A DNA stretch of 9,441 bases. Source: an uncultured Polyangiaceae bacterium. Its GTDB lineage: Bacteria > Myxococcota_A > Polyangia > Polyangiales > Polyangiaceae. This document shows, one piece after another, positions 72 through 9,441 of this stretch. The notes beneath the pieces were generated by a model. It searched no databases, was not told where the DNA came from, and was given only the letters and a program-made list of their open reading frames with translations. Each line of letters starts with the position of its first letter. The stretch's first letter is position 1. Position numbers and translations under genes: made by a program. The DNA lies in NCBI GenBank assembly GCA_964441055.1, contig CAYTYV010000029.1, positions 1 through 9,441 on the forward strand, read 5' to 3'.

Positions 72-2654
72 CTAGTCCTTTTGCAGGATGACGAACTGAA
101 CGCGGCGGTTACGGGCCCGATTGGCGGGAGTGATGTTGGGGGCCAGCGGCCGAGTCTGGCCGTAGCCCTTGGCCGTCAGCCTGGCGGCGCCGATGCCATG
201 CGTGACCAGCCAGCTCCGCACCGCGTCGGACCGATCCTGGCTGAGCTTCTGGTTGTGCTCCCTCGTACCGCTGTTGTCGGTATGCCCCTGGATCTCGATG
301 GACTTGAGGTTGGGGTTGCGGTGGATGACGTCGGCGATCTCGGTCAAGAGCTGCTGCGAGTCGGGTTGGAGCTTGGCGGAGTCGAGCTCGAAGTGGATCC
401 GCTTCAAGACCAAGATCCGATTGCCCTGTACGCGCACGCTGGGTCGCGCGGGGCGCTTGCTCAGGCTCAGCACCACGCTGGCATCCTTACGCGGCTCGAT
501 GGTGGTCTCGGTGACGTACAGCATGTAGTCGGGGGCCTCCGCGCGGATGGTGGCCTTGCCCAGCGGAAGCTCTGCGAGCTGGAAGCGCCCCGCACCGTCG
601 CTGGTGACGGCGTGCTCGCGTCCCTCGGCGTCGGTGACCTGAACGCGGACATTGCCGACGCTCTTGCCGTCGGTGTCCTGGGCCTGGCCCTGAATGCCGC
701 CCTTGCGCGGCAGGGCCTCCAGCTCGCATTGCACGTCCACGAAGATGGGGCCAGTAGGGGCGGCCGGCCCGACGCCGGGGCCCGCGGGGGCAGCCGGCCC
801 GACGCCGGGGTAGGGGGTGGGGGAGCCCGGGGCGGGCGGAGCCGATGCTCCAGGACCGGGATAGGGCGGCGGGCCGAATGCGCCGCCCGGCCTCATGCCG
901 GGTTCCGTCGGCTGGGGCTGCGGCCACGCACCCGCGGTGGGTGCCGGTTGCACGACGGCCGCGCAGGTGCCCGGCTTGTAGTCGGGGGCTCGAAGCTCGA
1001 GCGTGTAGCTGCCAGGCTGCAAGGCACGCGTCAGGAACTTTCCGTCGGCGGCGGTGGCGATGGGAGGATCGGTCTGGCCTTGGATCGCGATGATCGCGTC
1101 GGCAACAGGCGTTTGCGCGCCTTGCTCGGTGACGACGCCGCGTACGAAGTACTCGGGTGGCGGCGGCGGGGGCAGCGGCGGGGGCAGCGGCGGGGGGGCC
1201 TCGGCCTTCTCCTTTTTCTCCTTGGTGTCAAAGGCGTAGCCCATGCCCAAGTAGAGCATCCAGGGAGGCTCGGGGGAGACCTCCTCGATGAAGGTGCTGG
1301 TGGCCGACAGCCCGATGTCGAAGCCCACGTGGGCGCTCAGGCCGCGAAAGGACTCGTCGAAGGGCGTGGTGCGAGCACCCAGCGACAGCCGCGATGGGGT
1401 GGCCGCGTAGCCTGGGGCGCCAGAAAACTCGTCGTCGAGGTCGGACAGCGCCAAGCAGACGTCCCCCGGCGAGATCGTGCGGGTATGGCACTCGTAGCCC
1501 TGGCGGTTGACCGGGATGTCGACCGAGTACTCCAGGTAGGGCTGGACGTAGCGCGTCGGCACGTCGACCCCGAGGGCAAGGGTGTAGAAATCCACCCGAT
1601 CGATGCCCAGGCCGAAGCGCTCGATGCGGCTGATGGGGATCCGGTCGAGGCCGCCCGAGGTGGCCGGGTCGCGCTGGGCGCGCAGCTCCTCGACGTCCTG
1701 GACCAGCCCGCCCGAGCTATCCAGTCGGTAGCCGGTGTTGAAGTGGATTCGCAGGGGGATGTCGATGCTCGACGGCTCGCGAAAGTCGGCCGAGGCCAGG
1801 GCCATGAAGTCAGCGTTGACGCCGCCGATGCCCACCTCGCCCGCGCCGTTGAGCAGCAGCAATCGGATCTCGCCGCCGAACGTGAAGATGTCGCCGACGC
1901 GCATGGGCGTGAAGCCCTTGACGCCGAAGGTGGTGTCTCCCAGCACCTGCAGCAGCCCGGGAGATGAGTGGGTGTTGGAGGCGGCGTAGGTTCGGACCGC
2001 CGCGTATCCCTCGAGGAAGTCGATCGGCGTGACGTTCAAGGCGAATAGCGCACCGACATGGCTCGCCTCGTCCTCCGTCGCCTGATCGGGCGTGAGCAGC
2101 GCACAGGGTGTGTCAGCGTTGCACAGGAAGCCGCCCGCGGTGAACCAGTCGAACAGGAAGCCCACCCGGAAGGTCCCCTCGGCGCCCGAGCCTGCGTAGG
2201 AGGTATGCAGCAAGCCGGTGGAGCCCAAGGTGTTGATCTGCTCGCTGAGCGAGCGCTCGCGGTACGCCCATTCATCGTCGGCCTTCTTGTCGGCCCGCGC
2301 GCCGCCAGGCGGCGGCAGCGGTGCACCGAAGCTAGCCCCGCCATGGAAGTCGAAACTGGCGGGCGCATCGGTTGGCGCGGCCTCGGGCGCCGGCTCGGCC
2401 GCACCAGGCGCCTGGCCAGATGGCGGAGGGGCGCCGTAGGTCGTGGGCGGGGCCCCGTACGGCCCGGCTGCGGGTCCTGGTGTCGGCCCGGGTGGGGGCG
2501 CGGACTCCGGCGGGGCCGTGGGGTAGGGCGATGGGGTTTGCGGGTACGCCGTCCCGGCCACCAGGGTGCCCGCGGTGAGCGCGACGATCGGCAGGGCTGC
2601 TCGGGCGAGCAATCGAACGGCTTGTGCCGGCTTGGCATTCAACGGGGTTCGCAT
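72..2654 (-). CDS. OmpA-family outer-membrane protein. Domain order: signal peptide, Pro-rich region, putative beta-barrel, poly-Pro linker, two CarboxypepD_reg-like beta-sandwich repeats, C-terminal OmpA_C peptidoglycan-binding domain.
   Basis: 860-aa ORF. The N-terminus MRTPLNAKPAQAVRLLARAALPIVALTAGTLVAGTA looks like a signal peptide. The C-terminus IHFELDSAKL...IEIQGHTDNSGTREHNQKLSQDRSDAVRSWL...GYGQTRPLAPN...NRRVQFVI matches the classic OmpA_C pattern (TD..G...N..LS..RA, NRRV). Two segments (GVVTEQG...DGKFLTRALQPGSYTLELRAPDY and IQGQAQDTDGKSVGNVRVQVTD...GRFQLAELPLGKATIRAEAPDY) resemble carboxypeptidase-regulatory-like domains. The central part has alternating hydrophobic residues and ends in YAF, which is beta-barrel-like. 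Confidence 0.9.
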   Translation of the reverse strand: MRTPLNAKPAQAVRLLARAALPIVALTAGTLVAGTAYPQTPSPYPTAPPESAPPPGPTPGPAAGPYGAPPTTYGAPPPSGQAPGAAEPAPEAAPTDAPASFDFHGGASFGAPLPPPGGARADKKADDEWAYRERSLSEQINTLGSTGLLHTSYAGSGAEGTFRVGFLFDWFTAGGFLCNADTPCALLTPDQATEDEASHVGALFALNVTPIDFLEGYAAVRTYAASNTHSSPGLLQVLGDTTFGVKGFTPMRVGDIFTFGGEIRLLLLNGAGEVGIGGVNADFMALASADFREPSSIDIPLRIHFNTGYRLDSSGGLVQDVEELRAQRDPATSGGLDRIPISRIERFGLGIDRVDFYTLALGVDVPTRYVQPYLEYSVDIPVNRQGYECHTRTISPGDVCLALSDLDDEFSGAPGYAATPSRLSLGARTTPFDESFRGLSAHVGFDIGLSATSTFIEEVSPEPPWMLYLGMGYAFDTKEKKEKAEAPPPLPPPLPPPPPPEYFVRGVVTEQGAQTPVADAIIAIQGQTDPPIATAADGKFLTRALQPGSYTLELRAPDYKPGTCAAVVQPAPTAGAWPQPQPTEPGMRPGGAFGPPPYPGPGASAPPAPGSPTPYPGVGPAAPAGPGVGPAAPTGPIFVDVQCELEALPRKGGIQGQAQDTDGKSVGNVRVQVTDAEGREHAVTSDGAGRFQLAELPLGKATIRAEAPDYMLYVTETTIEPRKDASVVLSLSKRPARPSVRVQGNRILVLKRIHFELDSAKLQPDSQQLLTEIADVIHRNPNLKSIEIQGHTDNSGTREHNQKLSQDRSDAVRSWLVTHGIGAARLTAKGYGQTRPLAPNITPANRARNRRVQFVILQKD
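757..810. repeat. Tandem 30-bp direct repeat inside the OmpA-family CDS, encoding PGVGPAAP twice
   Basis: ggggc[g/a]gccggcccgacgccgggg occurs at 757-780 and 787-810, matching at 23 of 24 positions. The 18-nt core gccggcccgacgccgggg is exact at 763-780 and 793-810. The protein reads PGVGPAAPAGPGVGPAAPTGP. Confidence 0.8.
1168..1198. repeat. 12-bp tandem repeat followed by a G7 run, encoding the poly-proline linker
   Basis: gggggcagcggc occurs at 1168-1179 and again at 1180-1191, followed by ggggggg at 1192-1198. On the minus strand this encodes PPPLPPPLPPPPPP. Confidence 0.75.
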
Positions 2655-2749
2655 GGTCTTGTGCTCATCCAGGGATCGGCCCCGGTGGGGCGCTTTTCAG
2701 ACTACGGTTGTAACACTGTCGCGGACGGCATACGCACCATTTTCTTCGG

Positions 2750-4177
<1,428 letters not shown>

Positions 4178-4205
4178 CGACCTTCTTCGCGGCTGGCGGC
4201 CGGGA

Positions 4206-5552
4206 TCACAAGGGCAGCAGCACGTCGCGTTCTAGCCCCAACAGCGCCGCGCGCACAGCACCGACGAGGAAGATCGATCCGGTGACCACCACCGTGTGGT
4301 CCGCGCCCGCGTGGGAAACGGCGTGCTCGATGGTCTGCTCCGCGGCGCCCACGATCCGACCGGGGTAGCGCGCGGAGAGCTGGCTCGGGGCGACCGCGCG
4401 TCGGCTGGCGAGCGCCAGCGGAGGCTCGGTGTAGTAACGCGTCGCAGCCCGCGGGCCGAGCAGGGCGAGCATCTCGGACCAGGGCTTGTCGGCGAGCGCG
4501 CCGAACACCAAGGTGGTCCGCTCGGGCCGGGCGTGGTCGGTCAGCCAGGCCTGCAGAGCCGCGGCCGCGGCCCGATTGTGCGCGCCGTCGAGCACGACCC
4601 ACACGCCGCGGTGTCGAATGGGCTCCAGTCGCCCTGGCCAGCAGGTGTGCTCGAGCCCGCGACCGAGGTGGGCCACTAGCGGCCCCGCCTTCCGCTGTGG
4701 ATGCCAGGCCACGGCGTCGAGCTGCTCGACGATGCCCGCGGCCACGGCGGCGTTTTCGGCTTGGTGGCGGCCCGCCAGATTCAGCCTAGCCCGCACGGGC
4801 CCCGCGCTCAGGCCGCGGATCTCCACCCTGCCATCGGCGGCCATCGCAGCGGCAATGGCGCCCGCCGACTGCCCAACAGCACTAGCGCTAGGCTCGACCC
4901 GCCGTATAGGCCCCGCCCCCACGCGCTTGGCCACCCGTTGGATGGCGCGCGCGGGTCCTGCCGCCATAGGCCCCAGCACCAGGGGACGGCCGGGCTTGAT
5001 GATACCGGCCTTCTCGTAGGCGATGGTGGTCGCATCGTCCCCCAGGTAAGCGCGGTGGTCCACGTCGATGCTGGTGATGGCCGTGACCAGGGGGGCCTCC
5101 AGCGCGTTGGTGGCGTCGAGCCGACCGCCGAGGCCCACCTCGACGACGGCGAGCTCGACCTCGGCCTCGCGCATGGCCCAGAACGCGGCCGCCGTCATCG
5201 CTTCGAAGAAGGACAGCGGCGGCAGCCCGGGGTCGAGCGCCGCCTCGAGCGCCGCCGCGAACGGCTCGTCGTCGATGGGCTGGCCGTCGATGCGGATCCG
5301 CTCGTTGAAGCGACACAGGTGGGGCGAGGTGTACAGGCCCGTGCGCAGCCCAGCCGCGCGGGCCACCCGCTCGACCATGGCGCACGCGCTGCCCTTGCCG
5401 TTGGTCCCGCCGACGTGCACGGCCGCGAGGCCGCGGTGGGGGTCGTCGAGCACGGCCAGCGCCTGGCGCATTGCGGCAAGGCCGAGCTTCGGGCCGCTGC
5501 CGACCCGGCCGAGCAAGCTGCGCAGCGCGGCGGGCAGGCGTCGATGGCTCAC
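4206..5552 (-). CDS. folC: Bifunctional folylpolyglutamate synthase / dihydrofolate synthase
   Basis: 448-aa ORF with the Mur-ligase-type P-loop HVGGTNGKGS, plus SIDVDH and LDGAHN motifs typical of FolC. The GTG start (5552-5550) overlaps the accD TGA stop (5551-5549) as GTGA. accD-folC adjacency is also the E. coli arrangement. Confidence 0.9.
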   Translation of the reverse strand: MSHRRLPAALRSLLGRVGSGPKLGLAAMRQALAVLDDPHRGLAAVHVGGTNGKGSACAMVERVARAAGLRTGLYTSPHLCRFNERIRIDGQPIDDEPFAAALEAALDPGLPPLSFFEAMTAAAFWAMREAEVELAVVEVGLGGRLDATNALEAPLVTAITSIDVDHRAYLGDDATTIAYEKAGIIKPGRPLVLGPMAAGPARAIQRVAKRVGAGPIRRVEPSASAVGQSAGAIAAAMAADGRVEIRGLSAGPVRARLNLAGRHQAENAAVAAGIVEQLDAVAWHPQRKAGPLVAHLGRGLEHTCWPGRLEPIRHRGVWVVLDGAHNRAAAAALQAWLTDHARPERTTLVFGALADKPWSEMLALLGPRAATRYYTEPPLALASRRAVAPSQLSARYPGRIVGAAEQTIEHAVSHAGADHTVVVTGSIFLVGAVRAALLGLERDVLLPL

Positions 5553-6457
5553 CGTGGCGCAGGGTCCTCGGCGTCGCGGCCGCGGCTGTGGCCCGTCCCG
5601 CGTTCCCCGCTCGAAGGCTGCGGGCAGAGGTGGCGCAGCAGCATGGCCACGGTAGCCTTCAGCTCGAGCCGCGAGCAGACCCGATCGACCATGCCATGCT
5701 CAAGCAGGAACTCGGCCCGTTGAAAGCGCGCGGGCAGCTTCTCGCCGATGGTGGTTTCGATGACGCGCGGCCCGGCGAAGCCGATGAGGGCCTGGTGCTC
5801 TGCCAACAGCACGTCGCCCAGGGTGGCGAAGCTGGCTGCCACACCTCCCGTGGTCGGGTGTAGCAGGCAGGAGATGTACGGCATGCCCACGGAGCGGAAT
5901 CGTTCGAGCGCCGCCACGCTCTTGGCCATCTGCATCAAGGAGAGGATGCCCTCCTGCATCCGGGCCCCGCCCGAGGCGTGCAGCATGACCACGGGCAGTC
6001 GCTCGACGCAGGCGCGCTCGAACAGCCGCGTGACCTTTTCGCCCACCACCGAGCCCATGCTCCCGCCCATGAACGAGAAGATGAAGCAGCCATAGGCGAT
6101 GGGCCGCCCCTCCAGGCGCGCCCGGCCGATCTCGATGGCCTCGTGGTAGCCAGACTTGCTCTGCGACAGCTCCAGTCGCTCGCTGTAGGATTTGCCGTCG
6201 CAGAAGTGTAAGGGGTCGGTCGGCTTGAGGCCCTCTTCCCACAGCTCGAGCATGCCGCCGTCGCACATGAGCTGCTGCCAGCGAGCGGCCGATAGCCGAT
6301 GGTGATGGCCGCAGCGCGGACAGACCTCGAAGTGGGCGGCCAACTCCTCGGCGGTCAGGGTCTCGCCGCAGCCCTCGCATCGTCGGAAGACCCCTTTGCC
6401 CAGCGTGCGCTTGGCATCGGCGGACGTGGATGGAGCGGTTTTCTCAGGCCAGCTCAT
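5549..6457 (-). CDS. accD: Acetyl-CoA carboxylase carboxyltransferase beta subunit. The start is moved to the internal ATG at 6457; the 362-aa track ORF is over-extended.
   Basis: From MSWPEK the protein carries the N-terminal Zn-ribbon CEGCGETLTAEELAAHFEVCPRCG (C-x2-C-x15-C-x2-C), plus FMGGSMGSVVGEK, ASGGARMQEG and HPTTGGVAASFA. All are AccD hallmarks. The ATG at 6457-6455 is preceded on the minus strand by AAGGAGGGACG, a strong SD. The 60 codons upstream are Arg/Gly-rich junk that overlaps the upstream ORF. Confidence 0.9.
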   Translation of the reverse strand: MSWPEKTAPSTSADAKRTLGKGVFRRCEGCGETLTAEELAAHFEVCPRCGHHHRLSAARWQQLMCDGGMLELWEEGLKPTDPLHFCDGKSYSERLELSQSKSGYHEAIEIGRARLEGRPIAYGCFIFSFMGGSMGSVVGEKVTRLFERACVERLPVVMLHASGGARMQEGILSLMQMAKSVAALERFRSVGMPYISCLLHPTTGGVAASFATLGDVLLAEHQALIGFAGPRVIETTIGEKLPARFQRAEFLLEHGMVDRVCSRLELKATVAMLLRHLCPQPSSGERGTGHSRGRDAEDPAPR

Positions 6458-7044
6458 CGTCCCTCCTTGGCGGCGCCGTTTCCCACCGCCACGGATATCT
6501 CCGCCACGTCCGGTCCGAGCTTCAAGGTCGGCTCGCTCTTGTCTTGAACGGATCGGGCCGACACACCAGGGGCCAGCTCGCGGATGCACAGGCCTTCGGC
6601 GAGCACCTCGAGCGCGCACAGCTCGGTGAACACCCAATCGGCGCGTAGCGGTCCGCTGCTCTGCGCCACGACGGCTGGTCTGCCGCGCTCGTCGAGGTGG
6701 CGCATCAGCACCAACACCCGCCGAGCCCGCATTGCAATCGCCTCCTGCTCGCGCTGCTTTGCGTCCTCAGCGATGTCCACAAGGCCCCGCTCCGAGACCC
6801 GAACGGCCTCGATTACCGCCACGTCCACGTCATCGGTCGGGGCGGGGTCGCCCGATGACGTGGCGCGCACGCCGCGGGCGAGCAGGGGCTTGAGCTCGAG
6901 GGGTAGACCGGCGCAAAGGTGGATTCGCCTGTCGGGCCGAAGCTCCTGCGCTAGGCGGGCCAGGAGCTGCTTGCGCGTCAGCGCCACGTGGCCTCCCCGC
7001 TGGCTATTGGGCCAGCCTCGCGTGCCGCCGGGATGCGAGGCCAC
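6454..7044 (-). CDS. Hypothetical protein whose N- and C-termini resemble family I CoA-transferase beta subunits (AtoA/ScoB-like) but which lacks the central catalytic region
   Basis: The 196-aa ORF has a GTG start at 7044. An alternative GTG at 6987 is preceded by GGGGAGG plus 4 nt and would give 177 aa. Amino-acid composition looks like a real protein. LTRKQLLARLAQELRPDRRIHLCAGLP recalls the AtoA/ScoB N-terminus (..IA.RVAQEL.DG..VNLGIGLP). RRVLVLMRHLDERGRPAVV...VFTELCALEV..EGLCIRELAPGVSARSVQDKSEP recalls their C-terminus (..VIV.MEH....G..K.V..C..PLT....V..LVTELAVF.....L.L.E.APGVS.EE.Q.KTEA). I do not see the SENG catalytic-Glu motif. The stop overlaps the accD ATG as ATGA (6454-6457). The family assignment rests on recalled sequences only. 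Confidence 0.55.
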   Translation of the reverse strand: MASHPGGTRGWPNSQRGGHVALTRKQLLARLAQELRPDRRIHLCAGLPLELKPLLARGVRATSSGDPAPTDDVDVAVIEAVRVSERGLVDIAEDAKQREQEAIAMRARRVLVLMRHLDERGRPAVVAQSSGPLRADWVFTELCALEVLAEGLCIRELAPGVSARSVQDKSEPTLKLGPDVAEISVAVGNGAAKEGR

Positions 7045-7342
7045 GAGTCATCGTCTCGCGTGCCGTCGGTGCTTGCGGGCGAGAACGCCGCGACGCATCG
7101 GCGAAAGCCCATCGCCGCCGCGTGCCCGAAAAGCGCGGAGACGGAGTTGAACGACCTCAACGACCTTATGGCTACAGCGCTCATCACAGCCCAGCCCGCA
7201 CGGTGGTCCGTCCCATGACGGTCTTTTGGTGCGAGGTCAATCGGCCTCTTTTGTCTTGATAACGTTTATTCGAATAGGAGATGTACTCATATTGCTCCGC
7301 GGGTCGGGGTGGAGATTCGTCAATAGCAGAATCATTGGGGTT

Positions 7343-7362
7343 TGTGGCTAATCTGTGGATAA
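7343..7362 (-). promoter_or_regulatory. Two tandem DnaA-box-like 9-mers, one perfect and one with a single mismatch, spaced 11 bp start to start
   Basis: tgtggataa at 7354-7362 is the exact reverse complement of the E. coli-type DnaA box TTATCCACA. tgtggctaa at 7343-7351 (reverse complement TTAGCCACA) differs at one position. Both have the same orientation and sit one helical turn apart. Confidence 0.45.
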
Positions 7363-7403
7363 CTGTGTGACGAAAAAAAGTGATCCCCAAGCGATCTTTT
7401 TGT

Positions 7404-7432
7404 TTGCAAATAGAATCGGCTTCTGCGAGATT
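7404..7432 (+). promoter_or_regulatory. Candidate sigma70-type promoter with an extended -10, pointing into the structured region
   Basis: The -35 is TTGCAA (7404-7409). A 17-nt spacer ending in TGc follows, which is an extended -10 TGn. The -10 is GAGATT (7427-7432), matching TATAAT at 3 of 6 positions including A2 and T6. The predicted transcription start is near 7438-7441. This is a weak motif-only call. Confidence 0.25.
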
Positions 7433-7437
7433 CACCG

Positions 7438-9419
7438 TTGGAAGTTCCGCGGCACATCAGCCAACGAACAGTTCCAGACGCAGAAGCCACGAGGGGGACT
7501 GCGGTCGTTCTCGATACTGCGGGGCAGTACGCAATGCCGCGCGGCATCAGGGCGATCGAGCCAGTCGGGCAGCAACCCCGTCAAGGTTGTTGTTTCCGTT
7601 GGTACCAAAGGTCCTGGGCTGCTGCGACCCTGCTGGGGTTCCGGCGGGGGAGAAGCAGCCGCTTGCTGGGAGACCGGCAAGACCTCCGGTGGAAGGCACC
7701 CCGGGTGCGGTCGAGCCCGTCCTCTTTCGCGAGAGGGTGGGGGAGGCGGCCCTAGAAGGCGAGCCGCGTGAGAGCGCGGGGAGCCGGGCGGGTTGGTTCG
7801 CAAGAGACCGTTGCCGCACGGTCGTCGAACGCTGTTCTCTTCCGGATGGCGGACGGCACCAGCTCCGCGACAGGGGGTGTCCGGGTAGATCAGGTTGGGG
7901 TAAATCCGTCGGGACGAGCGGTCGTCGCGACGGGGGGTTGCCAACGCGATATGCGCAACGCGCCCCCTGGCCTGTGACAACTCGGCTAGCGGTGGCCCGC
8001 AAGGGCGGTCGCTACTTCTCGTGCGGTGGCTCGCCACCGCATCCAAGCGAGGAGGTCTGGGCAGCTCGGTGGCGTGCTCGTGGGTCTCCCATCTGCAGAA
8101 GTCGGCAGGCGGCATGTGGCCTGAGGGCTCCGGCGAATAGCCGGCACGGCGCTTGGGTCTAGCGCACAAAGATGTGCGTGAACGCATGTCGGAAGCCCCA
8201 TCTCGGCGGCCAAGCCGGGGTGGCGGTGGCGGCCCGAGGGGCCACGCTCCGAGCGCAAGCGAGGGGCGGAGCTCGGCGGGACCTGTCGGTGGAAGGCGTC
8301 CTGGATTCGGGGAGCTCGTGCCCTTGGCGGGGCATGGGCGAAGCGGGTTCTGGCTCTCTTGGGGTCGGCCGGGCAACCGGGCGGCTACGAGGGCGCGACA
8401 GGGGGCGTCAGTGGTCGCCTCACGGGGTTCGCGATCCGCCGATAACGCGGAGGCGAGCCAACGCCCGCGCAAGCGGGTGCCCTTCGGGGAACGGTGAACG
8501 CGGCTGCTGCTGGCGGACGCAGCGTCAACTGCGTCGCCACTCGGGGTCGGAGATGCCAGCAATGGCTATCCGGCGTCGTCGTAGACGGTTTCGGGTCGTC
8601 GCTCGCGCGCAAGCGTCGGCGCAGGCACGAGGCAGGTCGCGGCGGGCGGCACGGCGCAAGCCACAAGCTCGAGAGTTGGGGATCTGACGGGTGTTCGTGA
8701 CAACACAAGTCGGCTGCAGAGGTTAGCAAGAGGCATCTTTTCCGGCGGCGCCGAGAGCCAATCCGTTTTTGGCAAGGCGGGAATAGCTGTTGGAAGTGGC
8801 CCATCACCCCGACGAGGCGGGTCATCGGAAGGCGGCGAAGCGGGTGCTCGGGTTGCGGACCGCTCGACTGAACAGGTCGAGCCGCGGCAACCTACCTCCC
8901 CGGAAGGGGAGGTCGAGCTAACGGAAGGCATCCTGGAGCGAAGGCTCCTCGCGCCCTAAACCGGCGAGTGGAGTGGACGCTTCTGGTTCGGTGGCCCTCG
9001 GCTCGGTGGTCCTTCGGGGTCGGCGAGGCGAGCGGTGTCGAGAGTGGAAGGCTCGGCGCTGCACCAGCGAACGACAGAGGATGTCAGACCTGGCGGCGAT
9101 CGGTCAGGCTCTCTCAGCGCAAGCGCAGAGGGTCGGCGGCAGGAGCGAGAGCTCGAGGCCGCGCCGTTCGAACGCGGGGAAAGCTACCGCGGCCCAAAAG
9201 CCGCGTTATCCACGCGCAGGACCTCGCGACGCGAAGCGCTGTCCCGACGCGGGAAGCCGACGGAGCACGGTGGTGCCACGACTGCGTCTACGGCGCAGCG
9301 TGGAGGCGCACATCGGCTGAAAAAGCCGATGAGGGTAGTCCCCCGGAACTGCCCTGGCGCAAGTGGAGTTCCGTGGGGGGGGGCGCGGGGGAAACAGAAC
9401 ACCCCCCCCCCAGTTTTTT
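7438..9419 (+). ncRNA. Candidate large (~2 kb) structured non-coding RNA of unknown class. Boundaries are approximate and the 3' end could lie beyond the window.
   Basis: (1) There is no credible ORF. Every track ORF here is Arg/Pro/Gly/Ser-rich junk, and they overlap in several frames on both strands. (2) At least 15 local hairpins are capped by GNRA or UUCG tetraloops that are valid only on the + strand; coordinates are in the findings. (3) Many further perfect 5-10 bp stems occur: 7716-7741, 8022-8041, 8130-8144, 8512-8538, 8862-8882, 8935-8948, 9034-9060, 9188-9205, 9276-9303, 9311-9331. (4) The + strand has strong G>C skew: 111 G versus 64 C in four hand-counted 60-nt lines (8221, 8281, 8821, 9121), against 21 G/24 C for coding line 3001. 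That fits G.U-rich RNA helices. (5) An AT-rich promoter-like region lies upstream and a terminator-like element downstream. Confidence 0.45.
9375..9419 (+). terminator. Intrinsic-terminator-like element: G9/C10 stem followed by a T6 tract
   Basis: The G run 9375-9383 can pair with the C run 9402-9411 across an 18-nt loop (cgcgggggaaacagaaca). The stem is followed by ag and then tttttt (9414-9419). The T-tract follows the stem only on the + strand. Confidence 0.4.
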
Positions 9420-9441
9420 GTGGGAAAAAAAACCCCCGCAC

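Follow-up and report, generated by a model that had tools for sequence, protein, structure and literature searches.

A very large structured non-coding RNA with three related domains predicted at a conserved locus in uncultured Polyangiaceae

The locus and its non-coding character

The window (i.e. the whole stretch of 9,441 nucleotides of DNA that was analysed, from an uncultured Polyangiaceae bacterium with a genome of ~70% GC) carries genes between positions 72 and 7044 that have a strong GC3 periodicity of 0.85-0.98. Downstream of these lies the RNA gene that is the subject of this study, with a divergent accD operon (accD/folC) on its upstream side and, in most homologous loci, the co-oriented genes mtnA/lipA downstream. 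Here the periodicity is lost; the GC content by codon phase is flat over 7400-9441, with all three phases between 0.55 and 0.80. None of the ORFs listed in the region, including one on the minus strand from 7432 to 8562, gave a Pfam match. The original prediction had described ~2 kb without open reading frames of protein-like composition, and these data bear it out. It had also drawn attention to an AT-rich island at the boundary and to a G>C skew on the plus strand. Both are present. The GC content is 0.53-0.58 at 7000-7600, compared with ~0.70 elsewhere, and over 7200-9400 the skew, taken in steps of 400 nt, never leaves the range of +0.11 to +0.18.

Comparison with homologues leads to the same conclusion. 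Only 209 of 1162 indels (18%) have a length that is a multiple of three, and mismatches are spread evenly over the three phases (4403, 4486 and 4562), the pattern of non-coding DNA. Homologues of 7440-9419 thus keep no reading frame, and the region is not coding. A mosaic of REP-like repeats, which would have undermined the prediction, was not found either. A repeat search of the region gave short two-copy matches only, and these are the signature of an internal triplication of domains.

Promoter, upstream repeats and terminator

The features that define the ends of the gene are listed below.

7343-7372, plus strand: direct repeats with an 11-bp period, comprising TGTGGCTAA (7343-7351), TGTGGATAA (7354-7362) and a degenerate third copy (7364-7372)
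7397-7409, plus strand: T-tract and -35-like hexamer TTGCAA (7404-7409); promoter role inferred
7427-7432, plus strand: -10-like hexamer GAGATT (consensus GACATT), 17 bp past the -35 element and 7 bp before the 5′ end; role inferred
7440-9419, plus strand: RNA gene, from G7440 to the U-run of the terminator, 1980 nt; defined by full-length homology, contig ends and covariation
7440-7458, plus strand: 5′ 19-mer GGAAGUUCCGCGGCACAUC, nearly invariant and the most conserved element
9375-9419, plus strand: intrinsic terminator, with G9 (9375-9383), C10 (9402-9411) and T6 (9414-9419)

The prediction had placed the start of the region at 7438, two bases outside the true 5′ end at G7440. If the 3′ end corresponds to the base of the terminator hairpin the RNA is ~1,930 nt in length.

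The arrangement of TTGCAA, 17 bp, GAGATT, 7 nt and G7440 is common to ~38 contigs, and TTTTTGTTTGCAAA is kept in at least 9 of 11 loci and in an upstream alignment of 41 sequences. A generic sigma-70 scan called no promoter because the -10 hexamer matches the sigma-70 consensus at only 3 of 6 positions. A sigma-54 promoter was considered and rejected, as the GG/GC spacing is wrong. The upstream repeat has three matches in the window where 0.36 would be expected, and CTGTGGATAAC is found in 2-3 copies at an equal distance from the start in ~38 homologous contigs derived from DNA. The repeats resemble DnaA boxes or direct repeats of the OmpR/PhoB type, and the segment from about -97 to -68 is a probable regulator site.

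A terminator-like element of G9/C10 followed by T6 had been predicted, and all three parts are in place. The hairpin and T-run keep their position in the homologues while the sequences of the stem differ; the helix 9375-9382/9400-9407 is 96% canonical with four covarying pairs. Judged by its sequence, 9375-9419 meets the criteria for a Rho-independent terminator. A generic terminator scan missed it on the plus strand because the loop is longer than 8 nt. Transcription from a conserved promoter of its own, as inferred from these elements, starting at G7440 and ending at a conserved intrinsic terminator, is strongly indicated.

Distribution and gene neighbourhood

Full-length nhmmer matches were obtained at 10 of 80 accD loci, i.e. 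in ten Polyangiaceae/Myxococcota metagenome-assembled genomes (MAGs), with 47-66% identity. A further 118 metagenome contigs match the 19-mer, and 58 of these contain homologues; the other 60 are unrelated coding genes, and were kept as a control. In these alignments the RNA is conserved over its full length at one locus in an uncultured subclade of the Polyangiaceae, and it is widespread in environmental assemblies. An HMM built from 43 sequences (E up to 1) did not detect the RNA beside accD in cultured Polyangium and Sorangium (this locus only). Predatory and cellulolytic, the Polyangiaceae are a group of ecological importance.

In nine loci (L003, L004, L005, L006, L012, L018, L019, L169 and L175) the terminator is followed at 44-200 nt by a co-oriented gene, which is mtnA (IF-2B family) in seven of them and directly lipA in two. 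In L007 and L182 lipA is 3.3-4 kb away, and neither gene was found in L008 and L014. The window itself stops 22 nt past its terminator, and its own downstream gene is out of view. L169 is a natural variant with one module, ~1.2 kb long, in an equivalent genomic context.

No conserved gene for a partner protein was identified beside the RNA; the neighbours are those named above. An adjacent ORF of 196 amino acids was considered as a partner and rejected, since it is CoA-transferase-B-like, though diverged, and occurs in Polyangium and Sorangium too, where the accD locus lacks the RNA.

Folding and covariation

The plus strand folds better than shuffled controls, with RNAfold z scores of -6.74 (7438-8437) and -3.77 (8438-9419), compared with -1.39 and -1.18 for the matching halves of the minus strand. 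The window contains ten GNRA hairpins and one UNCG hairpin on the plus strand and none on the minus strand. Over 43 homologues there are on average 10.5 GNRA hairpins per RNA on the plus strand, 1.0 on the minus strand and 2.2 in dinucleotide shuffles. The region had been predicted to be dense in hairpins, and this is upheld on the plus strand only.

A consensus structure was derived with RNAalifold from a sequence-based MAFFT alignment of 43 non-redundant sequences (47-66% identity). It comprises 429 base pairs, of which 86% are canonical over the 43 sequences, falling to 40-45% when the partners are slid. Two-sided compensatory change is seen in 289 of the 429 pairs, against 123-152 for slid partners (counts not corrected for phylogeny). 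This extends to long-range helices; pairs spanning more than 300 columns are 88% canonical, and 33 of them covary, where 200 column shuffles gave at most 23. Within the paired cells G-U makes up 15% and A-C 3.3%. Note that a single MAFFT alignment served both to predict the consensus and to score it, that variable regions and pseudoknots lie outside the model, and that the covariation counts take no account of phylogeny. With these provisos, the alignment indicates a secondary structure of the plus strand that is upheld by hundreds of compensatory changes, the outcome that the prediction needed from its homologues. By its size, covariation and non-coding status, as judged from sequence, the RNA passes as a large ornate structured non-coding RNA in the operational sense of Breaker and Weinberg.

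Three paralogous domains and a terminal clamp

The predicted structure is divided into the following parts.

7460-8073, plus strand: domain I, closed by helices 7460-7470/8063-8073 and 7473-7479/8055-8061
7486-7886, plus strand: inner parts of domain I, comprising subdomain a (7486-7690), a GGAAGG linker from 7691 and module b (7690-7886)
8074-8694, plus strand: domain II, closed by helices 8074-8079/8689-8694, 8081-8088/8679-8686 and 8090-8094/8674-8677; module b 8284-8414
8695-9270, plus strand: domain III, closed by helices 8695-8697/9268-9270 and 8709-8715/9255-9261; module b 8916-9090
9271-9369, plus strand: 3′ tail, with hairpins 9276-9303, 9313-9329 and 9334-9353, followed by the conserved CAAGUGGAGU

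The two closing helices of domain I have 8 and 6 covarying pairs, and its helix 7695-7702/7874-7881 is 98% canonical. The helix 8927-8934/9078-9085 of domain III is 99% canonical with 6 covarying pairs. Module b of domain II contains 25 pairs that are 90.7% paired (42-52% when slid), 22 of them with two-sided change; these values were reached by none of 500 shuffles.

A covariance model (R1) was made solely from module b of domain II, with a rough calibration of E-values. It finds module b of domain I at 7690-7886 (27 bits, E = 6e-4) and of domain III at 8916-9090 (27.5 bits, E = 5e-4). These scores are modest, but nearly every homologue gives three full-length matches on the same strand, and the pattern is seen in more than 25 of them. 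When domains were compared with one another using nhmmer the matches were collinear, with E down to 1e-8. In each domain the GGAAGG linker leads to a conserved 8-bp helix ending in GACAGRGGRYGUC. The RNA is therefore read, from its sequence, as three tandem paralogous domains of ~600 nt, each with its own closing helix.

In the consensus model a four-way junction without a single unpaired linker nucleotide joins the three domains to a terminal helix, which gives a cloverleaf on a giant scale. The terminal helix involves the 19-mer, which in its RNA form reads GGAAGUUCYGCGGCACAUC. This region is predicted to pair with three 3′ segments, as helices 7444-7448/9365-9369, 7449-7453/9306-9311 and 7455-7459/9271-9275, the last five nucleotides of CAAGUGGAGU pairing with nucleotides 5-9 of the RNA. 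In the alignment columns of the terminal helix, U9 is paired with A in six sequences while C is never placed opposite A, and in L005 C8 is changed to U along with a change of G to A. Helix 7444-7448/9365-9369 is thus backed by covariation in the alignment. The other two helices rest mainly on 85% and 93% canonical pairing; there is so little variation in the 19-mer that only 0-1 of their pairs covary. The model has the junction clamped by these interactions of the 19-mer with the 3′ segments. Neither the internal triplication nor the clamping of the 3′ tail by the 5′ 19-mer had been noticed in the earlier reading of the sequence.

Evidence for expression

At least 15 homologous contigs, 1.4-2.9 kb in length, begin no more than 4 nt from the invariant 5′ GGAAG. 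Examples of contigs with this start are Ga0242661_1000862, Ga0242657_1003913, Ga0242671_1000859, Ga0058900_1015529, Ga0213853_10551320 and Ga0138576_1144907. By contrast, none of the 60 unrelated control contigs has the 19-mer at its end. Many of the homologous contigs stop just before the terminator, with 3′ ends that cluster at ...AAGUGGAAC, mostly near 9369, and many independent contigs cover the RNA from its 5′ end through the 3′ tail. Leaving aside the longest extensions past the RNA, of ~200-250 nt, no transcript-like contig was seen to run into a downstream gene. The ~2-kb contigs presumably derive from metatranscriptomes, judging by their end positions and their JGI project series. From the positions of their ends they look like assembled transcripts, although we have neither sample metadata nor an experiment. 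Accumulation of the RNA in many environmental samples, to a level sufficient for assembly at full length with exact 5′ ends, is strongly indicated, in the absence of experimental evidence of transcription. A plus-strand transcript was central to the prediction, and contigs that start exactly at the conserved 5′ end are what such a transcript should yield; no RNA experiment stands behind them.

We note separately that circularisation is hinted at by one contig with a circular assembly path (L153), and by the clustering of 3′ ends beside the helix that pairs with the 5′ end.

Comparison with known RNA families

The 4227 families of Rfam 15 gave no match at gathering thresholds, either for the whole window or for 20 homologous contigs (43 kb in total). 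Relaxing the cut-off to E of 10 on 7150-9441 brought up only four matches at chance level (mir-9193, ncS16, HIV-1_SL4 and L2 leader; 12-19 bits), mostly on the terminator. Thus Rfam gives no match to GOLLD, ROOL, OLE, HEARO or raiA, no covariance model for RNase P RNA, tmRNA, SRP, 6S or rRNA (SSU and LSU) was matched, and ARAGORN found no tRNA or tmRNA. The failure by eye to find signatures of RNase P, tmRNA, group II introns or rRNA in the original prediction is in keeping with these searches. A group II intron was rejected on several grounds: no Rfam match at E up to 10, a 5′ end of GGAAGUUC in place of GUGYG, no Pfam domain in the ORFs of the region, and a promoter and terminator of its own where there should be exons. 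A role as a CsrA sponge through GGAAGG was also discarded, as there are only ~3-5 such motifs, lying in the junctions of elaborate conserved domains. Collections of plasmids, phages and viruses (IMG/VR) contained no match to the RNA, and a literature search on large non-coding RNAs of myxobacteria or Polyangiaceae and on new ornate RNAs found nothing relevant. The family is not described in the databases or literature searched, and appears to be a new class of RNA.

Discussion

We conclude that 7440-9419 on the plus strand is a free-standing gene whose product is a very large and highly structured non-coding RNA of an undescribed family, with a probability that we put at about 0.85. The prediction of a giant structured plus-strand RNA of unknown class is supported by its folding, by covariation, by the absence of Rfam matches and by the 5′ ends of contigs.

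A co-oriented mtnA or lipA gene shortly past a conserved terminator in nine loci might suggest a giant cis-acting leader or attenuator of mtnA-lipA (methionine salvage and lipoate synthesis), whose fold would set the formation of the terminator at 9375-9419 and so control read-through in the manner of a riboswitch. Yet the next gene varies, being distant in two loci and neither of the two in another two; no transcript-like contig was seen to enter a downstream gene (the longest extensions, of ~200-250 nt, left aside), most stopping at or before the terminator; and no conserved alternative helix is predicted to compete with the terminator stem. Moreover, the cis-regulatory leaders known so far are shorter by a factor of 10 to 20. 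We consider such a leader unlikely. Nevertheless a cis role is not excluded, because the co-oriented gene lies 44-200 nt past the terminator in most loci. A slim chance also remains that the transcript is a polycistronic precursor, from which a nuclease such as RNase III or RNase E, acting on the closing helices, would release three RNAs of ~600 nt that then work individually. The paralogy of the domains, the long closing helix that each possesses and the existence of the one-module variant L169 in an equivalent context would all be accommodated by this. Against it, many independent contigs take in both the 5′ end and the 3′ tail, and the domains abut without linker nucleotides, which suits a folded junction better than a processing spacer. 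In addition the 19-mer, the most conserved element, pairs with the 3′ tail with covariation, and an intact end-to-end molecule is therefore favoured.

A mobile or selfish RNA (i.e. an ORF-less group II intron, a retroelement or IS-associated guide RNA, a prophage RNA of the ROOL/GOLLD type or a viroid-like replicon) would be one way to account for contig L153, where an exact terminal overlap of 123 nt joins the 3′ end of the RNA to its 5′ end, and for a similar 3′-to-5′ junction in L171. However, the sequence past the junction in L171 is that of a different variant, which points to an intermolecular chimera. The RNA occupies one chromosomal locus among housekeeping genes in ten of ten MAGs; it has a promoter and terminator of its own, and no reverse transcriptase, transposase or phage gene is nearby. 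There is no Rfam match to an intron, HEARO, ROOL or GOLLD even at E up to 10, none in the plasmid, phage or IMG/VR collections, and the 5′ end is GGAAG, not GUGYG. A mobile origin is thus highly improbable. The possibility of a decayed or unrecognised protein gene (a pseudogene, or one with frameshifts or odd composition) is effectively refuted. There are stop-free stretches, such as the 376 codons of 7432-8562 on the minus strand, and the median longest stretch in homologues is 269 codons compared with 216 in shuffled sequences. But GC3 periodicity and Pfam matches are absent, indel lengths and mismatch phases are those of non-coding DNA, and what is conserved is paired, compensating columns, with G-U pairs that are sensible on the plus strand only.

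For the free-standing RNA, the most likely reading of its function is a folded RNA particle or scaffold acting in trans, although nothing bears on function directly. About ten GNRA tetraloops and three equivalent domains could generate a compact particle with pseudo-threefold symmetry, which might act in trans as a scaffold or container, as RNA alone or as an RNP. Such a particle would be the intramolecular counterpart of the homo-oligomeric assemblies of OLE, ROOL and GOLLD, rather than a cis leader or an mRNA. Its expression may be controlled by a DNA-binding regulator (DnaA or of the OmpR/PhoB type) through the 11-bp direct repeats. This mechanism is inferred by analogy and is tentative, somewhat short of an even chance; for a cage-type assembly only the prerequisite, three equivalent domains and many GNRA loops, has been established. 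More doubtful still, the RNA might be the founding member of a new giant class and the largest structured non-ribosomal RNA of bacteria, with its three linked domains forming a closed pseudo-threefold particle, i.e. a single-chain counterpart of the ROOL and GOLLD cages, and with some of the molecules perhaps cut shortly before the terminator and made circular in vivo.

Few very large structured RNAs of bacteria are known once rRNA is set aside (OLE, GOLLD, ROOL, RNase P and group II introns). All of these have opened structural and functional work, most recently with the finding that several form RNA-only cages. At ~1,950 nt the present RNA would be among the largest non-ribosomal structured RNAs of bacteria, as originally predicted. 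It would add a new and much larger class with an internal threefold repeat, defined ends and a regulated-looking promoter, apparently highly expressed in soils, lakes and sediments. It would also suggest that the duplication of domains, the standard route of proteins to complexity, can build giant RNAs as well, and it points to unrecognised RNA biology in the Polyangiaceae. The RNA can be tested directly, since its sequence and ends are to hand along with over 40 diverse homologues.

GOLLD (RF01998) is ~800 nt in length and ROOL (RF03087) ~580 nt. Like the present RNA, GOLLD is very large, ornate and supported by covariation, has many motifs for tertiary contacts and lacks a known biochemical function, and it is expressed as a discrete RNA. 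There is however no match in sequence or structure, the present RNA is ~2.5 times longer and is internally triplicated where GOLLD is a single unit, and GOLLD is associated with prophages and tRNAs, in contrast to a chromosomal position among housekeeping genes in Myxococcota. GOLLD forms a symmetric 14-mer nanocage as seen by cryo-EM (PMC12286853), which invites the idea that three linked domains do something similar within one chain. ROOL forms an octameric cage with many A-minor and kissing-loop contacts (PMC12286853). It too is large and ornate without a known protein partner, but it is found in phages and prophages near tRNA islands, whereas the present RNA has a fixed chromosomal locus and no phage, plasmid or viral match. 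OLE (RF01071) is an RNP scaffold that dimerises (PMC12286853). Like the present RNA it is large, highly conserved and structured, and its gene lies among housekeeping genes; OLE is also plentiful in the cell. It differs in being ~600 nt long, in occurring in Firmicutes and in its genetic linkage to partners (oapA and others), while our RNA has neither an Rfam match nor a partner gene.

The 16S and 23S rRNAs resemble it in their size class of ~2 kb, multiple domains, long-range closing helices, paired 5′ and 3′ ends and abundant GNRA loops, and the present RNA is apparently abundant enough to assemble from environmental RNA. Yet the domains of rRNA are not paralogous, and the present RNA is a single unit with its own promoter and terminator outside an rrn operon. 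Tandem glycine riboswitch aptamers and CsrB/RsmZ also repeat a structural unit in one transcript, and such repetition suggests cooperative or multivalent action. Their units are 20-100 nt in length and have known ligands (glycine and CsrA), whereas those described here are ~600 nt and highly ornate, with no known ligand.

A conserved non-coding region

Positions 7440-9419 of the window contain a conserved, non-coding and extensively base-paired RNA gene of ~1.95 kb on the + strand, made up of three paralogous domains and served by a terminator and a putative promoter of its own. The G+C content of the window is ~70%, and minus-strand genes overlapping by 4 nt fill the following interval:

72-7044 (−): genes for an OmpA-family protein, a phosphoglucomutase-family protein, a FolC-like Mur-ligase protein, AccD, and a 196-codon ORF

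The original prediction was of a candidate giant RNA of unknown class, in a region lacking protein-like composition beside these genes, bounded by an AT-rich island and a terminator-like element, with G>C skew on the + strand and a high density of hairpins. All of these features are found. Third-position G+C bias is strong in all the genes of 72-7044 (0.85-0.98), while third-position periodicity is wholly gone from ~7200 onward. There is a low-G+C island at 7000-7600 (0.53-0.58), and from ~7200 to the window end G exceeds C by 11-18% in each 400-nt window. The terminator is located at:

9375-9419 (+): G9/C10 hairpin followed by T6

Folding of the 1-kb halves gives z = −6.74 and −3.77 relative to dinucleotide shuffles on the + strand, but −1.39 and −1.18 on the minus strand (i.e. 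not much better than the shuffles), so the excess stability is confined to the + strand. The window has 11 GNRA/UNCG tetraloop hairpins on the + strand and none on the minus strand.

A mosaic of REP-like repeats or a conserved reading frame would have refuted the prediction. The repeat finder detected no dispersed-repeat mosaic. Comparison of 27 homologue pairs (≥70% identity) gave 1162 indels, of which only 18% are multiples of three in length, and no codon phase is enriched in mismatches (4403/4486/4562). The stop-free stretches are at their longest near shuffled-sequence values, and ORFs inside the RNA region have no match in Pfam. The indels, mismatches, stop-free lengths and Pfam search all indicate non-coding sequence. 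The original observation is real and above chance, and its coordinates were essentially right.

We note that two stretches within the 860-aa OmpA-family ORF (72-2654, −) are also poor in periodicity. These (721-990 and 2250-2610) have G+C of 0.75-0.82 at all codon positions, and are probably low-complexity Ala/Pro/Gly-rich linkers.

Homologues and distribution

The window has no match in Rfam 15 at gathering thresholds and only chance-level matches at E up to 10, and ARAGORN found nothing in it. The AccD of the window was found only on ~3-kb metagenome contigs. An nhmmer search of 80 loci encoding close AccD relatives showed that 10 MAGs (Polyangiaceae, Polyangia, Myxococcales or Myxococcota by label) retain the whole region of 2.0-2.5 kb, which starts just upstream of 7440 and runs to the terminator. 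In every one of these the RNA is antisense to the accD operon and upstream of it. It is absent at the accD locus (the only locus to which this applies) in the other 70, including cultured Polyangium and Sorangium.

The best-conserved stretch is the 19-mer GGAAGTTCYGCGGCACATC (7440-7458). An exact match occurs in 118 metagenome contigs, 58 of which are true homologues by nhmmer; the remaining 60 carry unrelated protein-coding genes and served as a control. In L086, L087, L090, L091 and ~25 more contigs the 19-mer is present by chance, within one conserved protein-coding family of rumen- or gut-type contigs (...GGAAGTTCTGCGGCACATCCTTCACCCACTGGTGATG...) and within LuxR-type regulators, where it reads L-E-V-L-R-H-I. 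Scans with exact words therefore need confirmation of homology.

Secondary structure and covariation

A lack of compensatory change among homologues would also have counted against the prediction. The consensus fold of 43 full-length, non-redundant sequences with 47-66% identity to the window (MAFFT L-INS-i, RNAalifold) has 429 pairs in 77 helices. Of the sequence-by-pair cells 86% are canonical, compared with 40-45% in controls that slide the 3′ partner by 1-3 columns, and two-sided change is seen in 289 pairs, compared with 123-152 in the slid controls. Among the 61 long-range pairs (spanning >300 columns), canonical pairing reaches 88% and 33 covary, whereas 200 column shuffles gave at most 80% and 23, and sliding left 10-15 covarying. 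G-U accounts for 15% of paired cells and A-C for only 3.3%, and the same pairs read on the other strand would be 74% canonical; the RNA is therefore the + strand.

A 131-nt module (8284-8414; alignment A1, 32 sequences) was scored separately. Its 25 pairs are 90.7% paired, compared with 42-52% when slid, with two-sided change in 22, and none of 500 shuffles reached any observed measure. The consensus structure was derived and scored on one alignment, without variable regions, pseudoknots or a phylogeny-aware test.

Three paralogous domains and a 5′-3′ clamp

In the consensus fold four arms meet at a junction with no nucleotides left between them. The arms, and the 8-bp helices inside the three domains, are:

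7449-7459 with 9271-9311 (+): terminal helix arm
7460-8073 (+): domain I
8074-8694 (+): domain II
8695-9270 (+): domain III
7695-7702/7874-7881, 8295-8302/8402-8409 and 8927-8934/9078-9085 (+): 8-bp helices, 97-99% canonical

The closing helices of each domain contain 4-8 covarying pairs. Every domain has a subdomain a, a single-stranded GGAAGG linker (7691, 8291, 8917) and the 8-bp helix, the 3′ strand of which is GACAGRGGRYGUC. This repetition of parts led us to suspect an internal triplication, which was tested in two ways. Profiles of one domain (nhmmer) match the other domains collinearly, with E down to 1e-8 for a 26-kb target. Covariance model R1 (134 positions), built only from module b of domain II, picks out exactly those two paralogous modules that were predicted for the window, at 7690-7886 (+; 27.0 bits, E 6e-4, model positions 7-134) and 8916-9090 (+; 27.5 bits, E 5e-4, model positions 1-134). 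The same pattern of one strong and two weaker matches occurs in nearly every homologue. A natural 1.2-kb variant (locus L169, 1625-2914, −) in the usual mtnA-lipA context has a single b-module, with a 5′ part like domain I and a 3′ part like domain III. From its sequence it looks like a domain I/III recombinant, consistent with recombination between paralogous domains.

Three distinct segments near the 3′ end pair with the invariant 5′ 19-mer. Covariation supports the outermost of these helices, 7444-7448 (GUUCC) with 9365-9369 (GGAGU). In all 6 sequences where the partner of RNA position 9 is A, position 9 is U, and C is never opposite A; in the homologue L005, C8 is changed to U together with G to A. 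Transcript-like contigs stop right after this helix.

Putative promoter, contig ends and inferred expression

A single upstream architecture is shared by ~38 DNA-derived contigs, and the position of the terminator is conserved among homologues while its stem sequence is not. The RNA unit is therefore a self-contained gene:

7343-7372, ~−100 to −65 (+): two or three head-to-tail direct 11-bp repeats CTGTGGATAAC, conserved in ~38 contigs
between the repeats and TTTTTTGTTTGCAAATAG (+): A-tract, ~38 contigs
TTTTTTGTTTGCAAATAG (+): includes the −35 TTGCAA, 17-bp spacer to the −10, ~38 contigs
7 nt before GGAAG (+): −10 GACATT (GAGATT in the window), ~38 contigs
putative promoter 7343-7432, RNA 7440 to ~9369 or 9419 (+): RNA gene, from upstream architecture, terminator and contig ends

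Some contigs (L161, L149) have three perfect copies of the 11-bp repeat. Conservation of the repeats suggests that expression of the RNA may be regulated, and possibly coupled to replication. Read on the opposite strand, the TGTGGATAA within them is the canonical DnaA box TTATCCACA; direct repeats of the OmpR/PhoB type have a similar layout.

At least 15 homologous contigs (1.4-2.9 kb) start within 4 nt of the first G of GGAAG, eight of them exactly on it, while in the 60 controls the 19-mer is never at a contig end. Break positions in DNA assemblies are random, and contigs that repeatedly start on one nucleotide look like assembled transcripts. About 10 stop at ...AAGUGGAAC, directly before the terminator hairpin, and a few extend into or through it. 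Clustering of the 3′ ends would follow from the typical loss of a final, highly stable hairpin from random-primed cDNA. Several of these JGI contig series are, we believe, soil, freshwater and rhizosphere metatranscriptomes. Inferred from contig ends in the absence of sample metadata, there is a strong indication that the RNA accumulates as a discrete full-length molecule in many environments.

Two contigs have unusual junctions. L153 has an exact 123-nt terminal overlap (1-123 = 2530-2652), so that its assembly path closes into a circle of 2,529 nt; at the junction (1826/1827) ...GCGGAACG is joined directly to GGAAGU, i.e. the common 3′ end to the 5′ end. In L171 (1938/1939) the end of the terminator stem is joined to the 5′ start of a different sequence variant, so that it looks like an intermolecular chimera. 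Both would be accounted for if reverse transcriptase had switched templates on an RNA of very high abundance; they could be assembly artefacts, and genuine circularization of a processed form is not excluded.

Genomic neighbourhood

The divergent upstream operon comprises a ScoB-like ORF, accD and folC, beginning with:

6454-7044 (−): first ORF of the accD operon, 196 codons, no Pfam match

The 196-aa ORF has 26-49% identity (tblastn, partial to near-full-length) to the CoA-transferase subunit-B-like gene preceding accD in Polyangium and Sorangium. Relatives without the RNA have scoA-scoB-accD at the corresponding place; the scoA partner is missing in the window, and the ORF has the look of a ScoB remnant that has diverged or is decaying. 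It was rejected as an RNA-specific partner, since a ScoB-like protein is also present without the RNA. Between the divergent operon and the RNA promoter (~7257-7290) lies an AT-rich, partly palindromic element GATAACGTTTATTCGAATAGG, with ATAACGTTAT- and GATAGTGCTATC-like palindromes at homologous positions in loci L004, L012, L014, L018 and L019. A possible role for these elements is as operator of the divergent operon.

Discussion

We put the probability that this is a new structured RNA gene at about 0.9. A pseudogene or missed CDS is scarcely credible given the indels and mismatch phases. An RNA of a mobile element is only slightly less improbable; no phage, plasmid or transposon genes were found near the RNA, and plasmid, phage and IMG/VR collections contain no match to it.

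Two other readings are unlikely, if less so. Co-oriented mtnA (IF-2B family) then lipA follow 44-200 nt past the terminator in 7 loci, and the RNA might be their giant cis-leader. However, the downstream gene is variable (lipA directly in 2 loci, other genes in the rest), and the transcript ends speak against it. Marginally less probable is a precursor of three ~600-nt RNAs, against which stand the full-length contigs and the covariation of the 5′-3′ clamp.

That the RNA acts in trans as a folded particle is an inference that we hold only tentatively. Each molecule has ~10 GNRA tetraloops, a fivefold excess over shuffled sequence. Combined with the three equivalent domains and their tight junction, these are in keeping with a compact fold of pseudo-threefold symmetry, held by tetraloop-receptor and A-minor contacts. 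The 'oligomer' would here be covalent, with three domains in one chain.

In size, lack of coding signal and covarying helices the RNA fits the operational class of large ornate structured ncRNAs, while its expression as a discrete molecule is inferred from contig ends. It belongs to no Rfam family (gathering thresholds for the window and 20 homologues, and E up to 10 for the window region 7150-9441), and we found no paper describing this RNA. The nearest functional analogies to the proposed particle are OLE, an RNP scaffold and dimer, ROOL, an octameric cage, and GOLLD, a 14-mer cage (PMC12286853). We rate the RNA as a categorically new class, with the reservation that its function may yet fall in a known category such as scaffold RNA. 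It is ~2.5-3 times the size of GOLLD, ROOL or OLE, and differs from all known large ornate ncRNAs in its internal triplication, its uncultured Polyangiaceae host and its housekeeping chromosomal context.
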